A stretch of DNA of 17,970 bases, from UHGV virus genome UHGV-0122840; one strand, written 5' to 3'. Origin of the DNA: a virus. Of this stretch, positions 5,778-7,656 are shown one piece after another. Made by a program: the position numbers and the translations under genes. The notes beneath the pieces were generated by a model. That model saw only the letters and a program-made list of their open reading frames with translations. It made no database searches and was not told where the DNA came from. Numbering within the stretch: the first letter of the stretch is position 1; each line of letters opens with the position of its first letter.

Positions 5778-5891
5778 ATGGCGGGATATGGGAGTTGTAT
5801 TAAGAATTATAGTAATTTAATCAGAGGCTTGGGCTGGCTGGCAGGTGCTGTCCTGATAGTTATGTGCAGGCAACAAAAAACCCGGCGCTGA
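5778..5891 (+). CDS. Possible small hydrophobic peptide (37 aa, MAGYGSCIKNYSNLIRGLGWLAGAVLIVMCRQQKTRR)
   Basis: AGGTGG Shine-Dalgarno 7 nt before ATG. One predicted transmembrane helix with a basic C-terminus. Convergent with the cI operon; 3' end lies inside the terminator hairpin. No clear promoter found. Confidence 0.25.
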   Translation: MAGYGSCIKNYSNLIRGLGWLAGAVLIVMCRQQKTRR

Positions 5892-5898
5892 GGCCGGG
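5874..5898 (-). terminator. Strong intrinsic terminator ending the cI operon (CCCGGC CUCAGC GCCGGG then U7)
   Basis: Perfect 6-bp GC stem plus a 7-U tract on the minus strand, 9 nt after the stop of the 206-aa gene. Confidence 0.7.
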
Positions 5899-5906
5899 TT
5901 AATGCG

Positions 5907-6527
5907 TTAATGCTGGGGAGTGATTTTTTTGTTGTCTGTTGGCTGGGTATTTTGTGGCGGCGCTTGCAAAGTGGAAGGCTGTTGCAAAGGTGCGTGGTCT
6001 GACTTTAAAGCTGATACCAGCCCGGGAATCGCAACTATTACAGCGATAATGACACTAAAAATGGCTAATCGTATAGAAATACCCGACTGAACACCACTAA
6101 TTGCGGTATTAACCCCTGTTATTTGTCCTTGAATTCCTTCGAATCTCCCATTAATTGCTTTTATATCGCCAGCAGCGCTATCCATCTTTCCATCGATCTT
6201 GGACGATAGAGAGCTTATGGCTGCATTAAGTGATGCAAATTGGACATTAACGCTTTCACGAGATAGAGCCATGTCAGTCCTAATGGAAGAAGCAATAGAC
6301 TCCATCTCTGCTTTATTAGCAGCTAAGCGAGCATCAAGTTCCTCTCTGCTGATCGTTCCCACTTCTTCCTCCGTTTGTGGCGGTTTTATGTAATTATTTT
6401 GCACCTTGGTGGGAGAATTATCAAATTCAGCCTCAAAATCGGAACCGCCAACAACCTTCAACCTCCGGCTTTCAGATATGTTGGTGTCTTGCTTTCCATG
6501 ATTATTTAAATTACTGTCGTCACTCAT
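5907..6527 (-). CDS. Unknown membrane-anchored protein (206 aa): polar N-terminus, Ser/Ala-rich predicted coiled coil, single C-proximal transmembrane helix, Pro/Gln-rich tail
   Basis: ORF track. ATGA translational coupling with the upstream gene. Transmembrane segment IRLAIFSVIIAVIVAIPGLVSAL. No family recognised. Confidence 0.75.
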   Translation of the reverse strand: MSDDSNLNNHGKQDTNISESRRLKVVGGSDFEAEFDNSPTKVQNNYIKPPQTEEEVGTISREELDARLAANKAEMESIASSIRTDMALSRESVNVQFASLNAAISSLSSKIDGKMDSAAGDIKAINGRFEGIQGQITGVNTAISGVQSGISIRLAIFSVIIAVIVAIPGLVSALKSDHAPLQQPSTLQAPPQNTQPTDNKKITPQH

Positions 6528-6958
6528 AATAGCTCTACGGTGAAAAATGATTCATTTTTATGAAGTTCATTTTTAGGGTCTTCATTATCTTGCAATATCC
6601 CTATAACACTATACAGCCCTTTAGCTGGGACCCTAATTTCTTTCAATGTTACTATTACCTGTCCGCCAACTCCTGTTTCAAAATGGCTATCTTTCGTATC
6701 GATGAAAAGTGAAACTGATTCCGAAGAGCCGTCAGGGAATTGAATTTCCTCACCTTTTTTTATAATTAGGTGCGCGGGGATTACCATAATACCCAAATTA
6801 TATCTTGAATTTGGTTTCAACCCGATCATACCAACCCTGAAATCAATCGATAGCCGCGCAGGAAATTCATTGCATGTAAAATTAAGCGTCGGTTGGTTGG
6901 GTTCTTCGCTGCTATCAAATGGGGTTATAAAAGATATTCTTTCTAAATTAAGTGCCAT
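6524..6958 (-). CDS. Unknown soluble protein (144 aa, MALNLERISFITPFDSSEEP...)
   Basis: ATG at 6958 has AGGAG Shine-Dalgarno 5 nt upstream and lies 50 nt downstream of the cI stop. The longer ORF-track start at 7012 would overlap cI and lacks a Shine-Dalgarno. No family recognised. Confidence 0.7.
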   Translation of the reverse strand: MALNLERISFITPFDSSEEPNQPTLNFTCNEFPARLSIDFRVGMIGLKPNSRYNLGIMVIPAHLIIKKGEEIQFPDGSSESVSLFIDTKDSHFETGVGGQVIVTLKEIRVPAKGLYSVIGILQDNEDPKNELHKNESFFTVELL

Positions 6959-7008
6959 AAATTCTCCTGCATCGCTGTATGCTCTACGAGCATCTCTGCG
7001 ACCATCCA

Positions 7009-7656
7009 TCATCCAAACGTCTCTTCAGGCCACTGAGCCTTAACTACCTTGCCTATGATGCGGCATGTGTGATCGCAGTCCAGGGTTCTGTATGCCGGAT
7101 TCAATGGAACCAAGTAACTAACCCCTGCATCCTTCTCATACTTCTTGAACGTTGCCTCTGAATCACCATTTGCAGAAGCCACGCAGAAATCCCCAGACTC
7201 TACCGGCTCGGCCGGATCAACGAGTATCAGCATACCCTCAGGAAAACTCGGCCTTACGCCCTGTGGCGCAGTCATAGAATGGCCTTTCACCTCAAGCCAG
7301 AAAGCTTTTTCGCTGGCTTTTGTGGTCGTTGGGACCCATGCCTTTGCATCGCTTGCTGTGTAGCTTCCAACCTCCGAAAACGGCCCGGCCTGCACTGAAG
7401 AAAATAACGGGTACTCATATTGGCGAAATACAGCGTCTGAATCCTCGCCAAACATTATTTTTGCCGGAGATACGCCGAGTGCCGCCCCAAGAACCAGCGC
7501 GTCATCCGCGCTAACCTTTCTTGTTCCTAACTCGTAGTTCCCCAGGCGTGAAGGCGCAGCCCAGCCGCAAAGCTTGGCCAATTGAGCCTGGCTAAGTCCT
7601 TTAGCTTCTCTAAGGGACTTGATCCTTTCCCCGATAATTTCATGCATCGTTTTCAT
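7009..7656 (-). CDS. cI: CI-type prophage repressor: N-terminal HTH_XRE domain plus C-terminal LexA-like S24 autopeptidase domain (215 aa)
   Basis: HTH region [23 protein letters not shown]24 catalytic Ser (GHSM) and Lys (IGKVVK) motifs. Divergent from cro across an operator region. Confidence 0.9.

Follow-up and report, generated by a model that had tools for sequence, protein, structure and literature searches.

A two-gene cassette in the rexAB slot of a lambdoid prophage: repressor-operon cargo, probably of the exclusion type, from protein families without known function

The virus genome UHGV-0122840, a stretch of 17,970 nucleotides (nt) referred to here as the window, raises the question of which genes can take the place of rexA and rexB behind the repressor gene of a lambdoid prophage and what function they may serve there. 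The rexAB slot is the textbook case of prophage-encoded exclusion, and we know of no account of its content in most wild lambdoid phages. In the window, the slot is occupied by two genes, termed A and B. A preliminary description of this DNA had placed them directly after the repressor gene cI and ahead of a terminator and the OL/PL region, and the coordinates and the terminator (5879-5900) were confirmed, with operator repeats found on both sides of the unit. Its statement that the slot is a known hotspot for cargo agrees with the literature, where the interval between cI and N is described as a mosaic hotspot with the abortive-infection genes rexAB and bstA (PMC8585504, citing Degnan 2007). 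According to the analysis presented here, A and B form a cassette of prophage cargo in the repressor operon, probably of the exclusion type, that is drawn from protein families without known function.

Homologues of B are found in prophages of Klebsiella, Enterobacter, Cedecea, Leclercia, Salmonella, Yersinia, Pectobacterium, Pantoea, Xenorhabdus and Arsenophonus. In approximately 17 of approximately 25 distinct contexts, B and an upstream partner gene directly follow a prophage repressor gene, with divergent cro/cII and replication genes nearby; scans of genome contigs and metagenomes contributed few new contexts. The gene directly upstream of B is small, tightly spaced and drawn from unrelated families, of which four types can be distinguished: the A family, with 143-172 amino acids (aa), in Escherichia, Klebsiella, Cedecea, K. 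oxytoca and Xenorhabdus; proteins of 96-98 aa in Yersinia, Pantoea and Arsenophonus; proteins of 99-101 aa in Pectobacterium and others; and proteins of 112-128 aa with a CxxC...CxxC arrangement. A profile comparison found A and the 97-aa partner from Yersinia to be unrelated. The partners present small binding-type folds, and no enzyme domains were found among them. The alignment of the B family divides into four regions, namely a variable N-terminus of approximately 50-110 residues, a conserved core that includes the heptads, a transmembrane (TM) helix and a Pro/Gln-rich tail. The N-terminal classes of B match the partner family exactly, while the coiled coil and the TM helix are approximately 60-70% identical whatever the partner. 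As judged from these alignments, the family would consist of a conserved, membrane-anchored cytoplasmic coiled-coil chassis that is combined with an exchangeable module, the latter comprising a small binding protein and the matching N-terminus of B.

Two types of loci deviate from this composition. In Photorhabdus, another coiled-coil protein, with a TM segment at its extreme C-terminus (PHROG 3556), comes after distant homologues of A, and the two-protein architecture recurs here with a membrane partner of another family. At one such locus (L060/L061, 3645-4952), the A homologue, with a 96-aa open reading frame (ORF) upstream, and the PHROG 3556 protein are located between a gene for an IcmF-family protein of a type VI secretion system and phage tail-fibre genes. 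The second type is represented by L051 (3989-4429), where a B homologue of 146 aa lacks the variable N-terminus and the small partner gene and lies directly after a 281-aa ORF that appears antirepressor-like by eye.

The preliminary description had predicted that B contains a coiled coil, one C-proximal TM helix and a Pro/Gln tail, and all three elements were recovered. The heptad register is consistent over residues 59-152 (IDGKMDS/AAGDIKA/INGRFEG/IQGQITG/VNTAISG/VQSGISI), a single hydrophobic segment follows at residues ~154-174 (Kyte-Doolittle 19-residue maximum of 2.7), and the tail of approximately 30 residues contains 6 Pro and 6 Gln. Within the family, the core follows the pattern ISREEL-x-A-x-L-x-ANKAE...R-x-EMA-x-WRE and continues into the consensus heptads IDGKMDS VDGDIKA INGKFEG IQGQITG INTAISG IQSGIST, in which both core positions are held by Ile/Val. 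A basic residue is invariant ahead of the TM helix, and the tail contains a QPIIIQVP motif. According to the coiled-coil rules of Harbury et al., trimers are favoured if positions a and d both carry beta-branched residues; because Ile/Val occupy these positions, the coiled coil of B is probably trimeric. A PDB sequence profile search with the B alignment yielded insignificant coiled-coil matches only (reovirus sigma-1, HA2, SmhB and ApoE); among these weak, non-significant matches, reovirus sigma-1 and HA2 are trimeric viral coiled coils, and SmhB was matched with E=0.028 over 57 residues. B lacks a signal sequence, its N-terminal part comprises approximately 150 charged residues, and a basic residue precedes the helix on its N-side; the topology would therefore be N-in/C-out, of the tail-anchored type. 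One homologue of 159 aa (L064) stops directly past the TM helix and does not contain the Pro/Gln tail, which suggests that the periplasmic tail is dispensable for the conserved function. The tail is also absent in the Photorhabdus relatives.

For gene A, RefSeq records disagree, giving 144 aa in some cases and 162 aa in others. Homologues of 143-144 aa from Enterobacter, Citrobacter, Phytobacter and Klebsiella share a conserved N-terminus that begins, without exception, at the 144-aa position, and the start was placed at 6958 on this basis. This agrees with the 144 aa and the separate AGGAG element of the preliminary description; the latter is found at 6964-6968, 5 nt before the ATG. The start at 7012, which would result in 162 aa, was rejected since the extension is not conserved in other genera, and positions 6959-7012 are probably an untranslated leader. 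In a 933W-type context, the match ends at 7027, beyond the ATG at 7012, and the leader therefore moves with the cassette. No hydrophobic segment, signal peptide or TM segment was detected in A, and the missing signal peptide suggests a cytoplasmic location. An AlphaFold model computed from a 22-sequence alignment is all-beta with eight strands (predicted local distance difference test, pLDDT, 87.5; predicted template modelling score, pTM, 0.81) and replaced an earlier run from 9 close homologues (pLDDT 67). It presents a seven- or eight-strand sandwich that can be superposed on immunoglobulin (Ig)/FN3-like domains, and A is predicted from this model to be an Ig-like domain of the cytoplasm, with a fold of the binding type and not that of an enzyme.

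The relatives of A depend on the depth of the search: a word-indexed search returned Enterobacteriaceae only, and an exhaustive profile search added approximately 15 representative clusters of 136-153 aa. A search in BFVD retrieved only uncharacterised small phage proteins, and a PDB sequence profile search with the A alignment only oestrogen-receptor noise. A motif of approximately 45 residues links the A profile to He_PIG Ig repeats in giant surface proteins, and the sequences hint at an origin of A from a cadherin-like Ig repeat. This likeness is limited to the fold and the short motif; unlike the He_PIG and other bacterial Ig-like adhesin repeats, A stands alone in the cytoplasm, carries no signal peptide and gives no match to Pfam He_PIG. 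Two proteins of 2,700-4,200 aa that consist of He_PIG/Big_9 Ig repeats (P0041 and P0055) each contain 8-22 short stretches with a match to the A-family profile.

Both genes are part of a cassette that recurs, at the identities listed in Table 1, in phages HK542 and HK244 and in E. coli genomes. In the immunity-region records of the two phages, a lambda-type cI is followed by two 'hypothetical proteins' and then by an annotated Timm terminator, and three GenBank entries for these phages (EF120457, EF120458 and JQ086373) already annotate both ORFs in this way; the first annotation of the ORFs goes back to GenBank records of Degnan et al. 2007. The words 'unrecognised' and 'undescribed' of the preliminary description consequently stand for the function of the genes and not for their existence. 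Among 50,697 deposited phage records, HK542 and HK244 are the only carriers of B, and the whole cassette is present in 49 of 5,426 complete E. coli genomes (0.9%); cassette-positive strains include E. coli 2013C-3342 and O55:H7 USDA5905. It was found in E. coli behind at least five repressor alleles, i.e. the 215-aa cI of the window, lambda cI (HK542), WP_000428098, WP_001302016 and WP_021572762. In the context of WP_000428098, a DUF3024 gene lies between repressor and cassette; this insertion ahead of A and B indicates that the slot can hold stacked cargo. The DUF3024 insertion is seen in the 933W-like immunity context of E. coli 2013C-3342 (L059, 6164-6505). Phage Sf101 shares much of the window backbone and carries in its slot a single unrelated hypothetical gene of 134 aa (L065, 6269-6673), which overlaps the end of its own cI and represents another uncharacterised cargo of the hotspot.

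The assignment to the rexA/rexB slot was upheld by both bounds of the cassette. Because the terminator core matches lambda Timm and the 3' end of cI is common to lambda cI, the cassette replaces rexA-rexB exactly, as a precise allelic replacement. Guanine-cytosine (GC) content is 52% in cI, 43% in B and 37.5% in A, and this accessory cassette of a lambdoid prophage is exchanged horizontally. The two proteins have end-to-end profile matches to PHROG 5893 (A, E=2.1e-50) and PHROG 5820 (B, E=3.4e-76). Their homologues across genera are 63-79% identical with conserved lengths, and cross-genus comparisons gave nonsynonymous divergence (dN) of 0.12-0.77 with synonymous divergence (dS) saturated or >2.4, values that point to purifying selection on both A and B.

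The genes cI, A and B are laid out as one operon, of which the repressor gene is the presumed first gene. Between cI and position 5900, a consensus scan found 0 minus-strand terminators and 0 credible internal promoters, and the proposed translational coupling of A and B is supported by the ATGA overlap at 6524-6527. The sole promoter-like match (6424-6396) lies inside B, and an internal promoter in the style of rexB was rejected, as shuffled sequences gave more sites than the scan. Since A and B sit between cI and Timm in place of rexA-rexB, they are, by analogy with lambda, most likely transcribed with cI in lysogens. The co-transcription claimed in the preliminary description thus holds for the operon layout, in which neither a terminator nor a credible promoter intervenes. 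The unit ends in a terminator (5900-5879) that consists of a GC-rich stem of 8 bp followed by a T-run, and it is flanked on both sides by a 33-nt operator-bearing repeat, with copies at 5616-5648 and, for OR, at 7712-7744 that are 79% identical. The coordinates are summarized in Table 1.

Table 1. Features of the cI-A-B region and its borders, in window coordinates
Feature	Position	Strand	Remarks
cI-type prophage repressor, 215 aa	7009-7656	-	HTH_3 and Peptidase_S24 domains
Conserved cI 3' end (encodes ...QWPEETFG, as in lambda cI)	7009-7036	-	Upstream cassette boundary; homology to HK542 starts here
Mobile cassette	5864-7036	-	Identity to HK542/HK244 98.7%, to 49 complete E. coli genomes 98.6-99.7%; GC 42%
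In-frame 18-codon extension upstream of gene A	6959-7012	-	ATGA formed by its ATG (7012) and the cI stop
AGGAG Shine-Dalgarno	6964-6968	-	5 nt ahead of the gene A ATG
Gene A, 144 aa, soluble, predicted 8-strand Ig-like beta-sandwich	6524-6958	-	PHROG 5893 (unknown function)
ATGA overlap of gene A stop and gene B start	6524-6527	-	Translational coupling
Gene B, 206 aa, predicted inner-membrane coiled-coil protein of the tail-anchored type	5907-6527	-	PHROG 5820 (unknown function)
B residues 1-58, variable N-terminal region	6354-6527	-	Co-varies with the upstream partner family; A presumably docks here
B residues 59-152, conserved coiled coil	6072-6353	-	ISREEL...ANKAE..., then heptads
B residues 154-174, single uniformly hydrophobic TM helix	6006-6068	-	Conserved Arg/Lys just before the helix
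B residues 175-206, Pro/Gln-rich tail, presumed periplasmic	5910-6005	-	QPIIIQVP motif in relatives
Intrinsic terminator (AACCCGGCCTCAGCGCCGGGTT + T-run)	5879-5900	-	Stem-loop core as in lambda Timm after rexB; downstream cassette boundary
OL-type operator cluster	5597-5648		33-nt repeat at 5616-5648; palindromic half-sites at 5597-5632

Past the terminator, the window encodes N (5128-5472) and Ral (4799-4999), and cro (7726-7983), CII and an O-like protein are encoded divergently on the plus strand. Between ral and the cIII thermoregulator, roughly at the position of lambda sieB, a minus-strand ORF of 149 aa (4291-4740) shows at least two hydrophobic stretches by eye, has no Pfam match and falls within PHROG 3054 (unknown function); this ORF is a candidate for a second membrane exclusion gene of the same prophage. 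The thermoregulator RNA itself (Lambda_thermo, 4009-4067, minus strand, 88.5 bits) is the only Rfam match in the window. On the plus strand, the O-like replication gene (8591-9439) is followed by a 626-aa fusion of Toprim and DnaB-like helicase domains (9550-11430), which occupies the place of the lambda P-type loader and is common to phage Sf101.

Comparison with known families placed neither protein. Pfam and NCBIfam gave 0 matches above threshold for A or B, and in particular no homology to toxin-antitoxin (TA) families. SieB and other superinfection-exclusion families produced no Pfam, NCBIfam or PHROG match for either protein. For the RexA family, A has no Pfam match at E<=1, and lambda RexA was aligned to the A profile with an hhalign probability of 0.26%. 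RexB is polytopic; B contains a single hydrophobic segment, and its profile was aligned to lambda RexB with a probability of 0.2%. Together with PADLOC, these searches bear out the earlier impression that the proteins resemble neither RexA, RexB or SieB nor any family that can be named. Sub-threshold matches to Baculo_PEP_C, SlaB and MakA/MakE were rejected as heptad-repeat noise. These include Baculo_PEP_C (PF04513), with 19.1 bits against a cut-off of 38 and similarity in heptad repeats only, and the ClyA-type alpha-pore-forming toxins (MakA/MakE/SmhB), with 14-15 bits in NCBIfam against cut-offs of 320-360. When A and B were sought by RefSeq, GenBank and UniProt accession, PHROG identifier and phage name, no functional study was found in the searchable literature, which leaves room for an earlier description, and their RefSeq accessions are absent from the DefensePredictor supplements. 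HK542 appears as a test phage in the OLD preprint; the other literature matches were judged by title and abstract.

Among named systems, RexAB can be highlighted. The cassette fills the identical slot, has the orientation of cI and is bounded by the conserved cI 3' end and by Timm. It likewise comprises two genes, for a soluble and then a membrane protein, and in both systems the repressor promoter presumably drives these genes in lysogens. In contrast, no sequence or profile similarity to RexAB exists (hhalign probability 0.2-0.3%), and a consensus scan of the cassette did not find an internal pLit-like promoter. RexA is a DNA-binding sensor of 279 aa, whereas A is a predicted Ig-like sandwich of 144 aa; RexB has 144 aa and is described as an ion channel (PMC8585504), whereas B is a single-pass coiled-coil protein of 206 aa. 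The cassette resembles RexAB by position and logic and is set apart from it by every test of sequence and architecture. With BstA of the Salmonella prophage BTP1, only the repressor-linked position is shared; BstA is a single protein at phage DNA replication sites that has an embedded anti-BstA DNA element and no membrane component (PMC8585504). No Pfam or PADLOC matches are common to BstA and A or B.

The architecture of B, a coiled coil followed by a C-terminal membrane anchor, is shared with XhlA (PF10779; PHROG 937, 'hemolysin'), but B has no PF10779 match at E<=1 and is approximately three times longer. The Photorhabdus PHROG 3556 protein reaches PF10779 with E=0.0036 (17.9 bits, cut-off 34.7) and PHROG 937 with E=5e-5, both of which are sub-threshold. 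XhlA proteins are encoded in late lysis cassettes beside holin and endolysin genes, outside the repressor operon. A similar architecture is found in ElaB/YqjD/YgaM of E. coli (DUF883), where a cytoplasmic helical or coiled-coil domain and a single C-terminal anchor tether cytoplasmic partners to the membrane. No homology to B is detectable (no DUF883 match), and elaB, yqjD and ygaM are chromosomal housekeeping or stress genes that have no coupled partner gene and are not prophage cargo.

Based on these observations, it is plausible, if somewhat short of probable, that the cassette is a two-component, membrane-tethered phage-exclusion module in which an interchangeable binding subunit is combined with a conserved tail-anchored chassis. 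In this mechanism, B would serve as the chassis, extending its long coiled coil into the cytoplasm while being anchored in the inner membrane via one C-proximal helix. A, in which no catalytic signature is seen, would dock on the variable N-terminal ~58 residues of B and act as the specificity subunit, recognising either a component of the superinfecting phage or a host factor that is altered by infection. The complex may then act at the membrane, by Rex-like abortive infection through perturbation by B or by tethering and sequestering the bound target. We infer the antiviral function in its entirety from the exact rexAB position, the hotspot between cI and N, the restriction to prophage cargo, the patchy distribution and the low GC content, all of which fit an exclusion system; expression would be driven by PRM, by analogy with lambda.

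Several points weigh against this exclusion module. PADLOC-DB v2.0.0 returned 0 families at E<=1 for both proteins, and neither carries a toxin, nuclease, NTPase or channel signature in Pfam or NCBIfam. In approximately one third of the B-family contexts, the repressor is not adjacent. Such cargo sites are located behind DinI and close to tail genes (one Yersinia prophage), downstream of a tape-measure-like gene (Xenorhabdus) and next to tail-fibre genes (Photorhabdus), and Pantoea is also among them. The consensus scan did not detect a PRM-like promoter, a result that is uninformative since promoters of this type are weak. Instead of sensing, the swappable partners could just as well have effector or regulatory roles. 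The TM helix of B contains no polar residues, which argues against a RexB-like ion channel, and the homologues without a tail show that the mechanism cannot centre on it. The proposal is weakest at its output step: the TM helix is uniformly hydrophobic and does not resemble a channel-lining helix; tethering or sequestration and a perturbation of the membrane through higher-order assembly are equally possible.

A more far-reaching version of the exclusion module is put forward only tentatively. A and B could represent the first member of a hitherto undescribed, modular type of prophage immunity in Enterobacterales, with a probably trimeric chassis as the common output and plug-in sensors, whose cassette is swapped for rexAB behind different repressors. 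The sensors (Ig-like sandwich, zinc-ribbon and ~100-aa domains) would plug into the variable N-terminus of B and be phage-specific.

The alternative that survives best is a role in lysogenic conversion or self-regulation that is not antiviral. The pair might affect host physiology, for instance envelope stress or a tethering of ribosomes or proteins as in ElaB/YqjD, or the lysis-lysogeny decision and induction of the prophage. The missing defence signature in PADLOC, Pfam and NCBIfam fits this explanation, as does the generic nature of a tail-anchored coiled-coil architecture, and cargo of the cI operon is not invariably defensive; RexAB itself is reported to influence the transition from lysogenic to lytic growth. 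However, variable partners on a conserved chassis with rapid exchange of modules are typical of conflict systems, and the family is confined to prophage cargo sites with a patchy distribution, including less than one in a hundred E. coli genomes. A non-antiviral role is considered unlikely, yet it has to be taken seriously.

Superinfection exclusion (Sie) at the stage of genome entry, in which B would block the translocation of incoming DNA via its tail or membrane-proximal part and without killing, while A assembles or stabilises it, appears rather improbable. B has the single-pass inner-membrane architecture for this task, is placed for expression in the lysogen and is predicted to expose the conserved QPIIIQVP motif just outside the membrane, and small membrane Sie proteins beside repressors are known from other temperate phages (lactococcal Sie2009 and HK97 gp15). 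Yet the tail is dispensed with in L064 and the Photorhabdus relatives, approximately 150 of the 206 residues of B and the entire partner are predicted to be cytoplasmic, and a swappable cytoplasmic partner that co-varies with the N-terminus of B is not easily explained.

A TA-like addiction pair, in which B is a membrane toxin restrained by A and the prophage is stabilised without sensing of phages, would account for small, mobile, translationally coupled genes and for a membrane protein as the product of the second. Neither gene order nor the co-varying N-terminus separates this explanation from the exclusion module. The lack of homology to TA families and the partnerless, though N-terminally truncated, B homologue in L051 stand against it and make it very unlikely. 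Finally, chance ORFs or decaying remnants, for which nothing speaks except the missing annotation, are effectively refuted by the conserved lengths, the 63-79% identity, the values of dN far below dS, the confident AlphaFold model of A and the PHROG matches at 2e-50 and 3e-76.

Defence cargo in the rexAB slot is to be expected for specialists; the chassis-plus-partner family, its breadth and its presence in HK542 make this candidate unusually tractable. As the cassette is carried by a cultured phage and by approximately 1% of complete E. coli genomes, strains of the Shiga toxin-producing type included, its function is directly testable by simple genetics. If the cassette is antiviral, it would provide a handle on the separation of specificity and output and would represent a new, enzyme-free architecture among defence systems. 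If it is not, A and B would constitute a widespread membrane module that is expressed in lysogens and serves a different biology.

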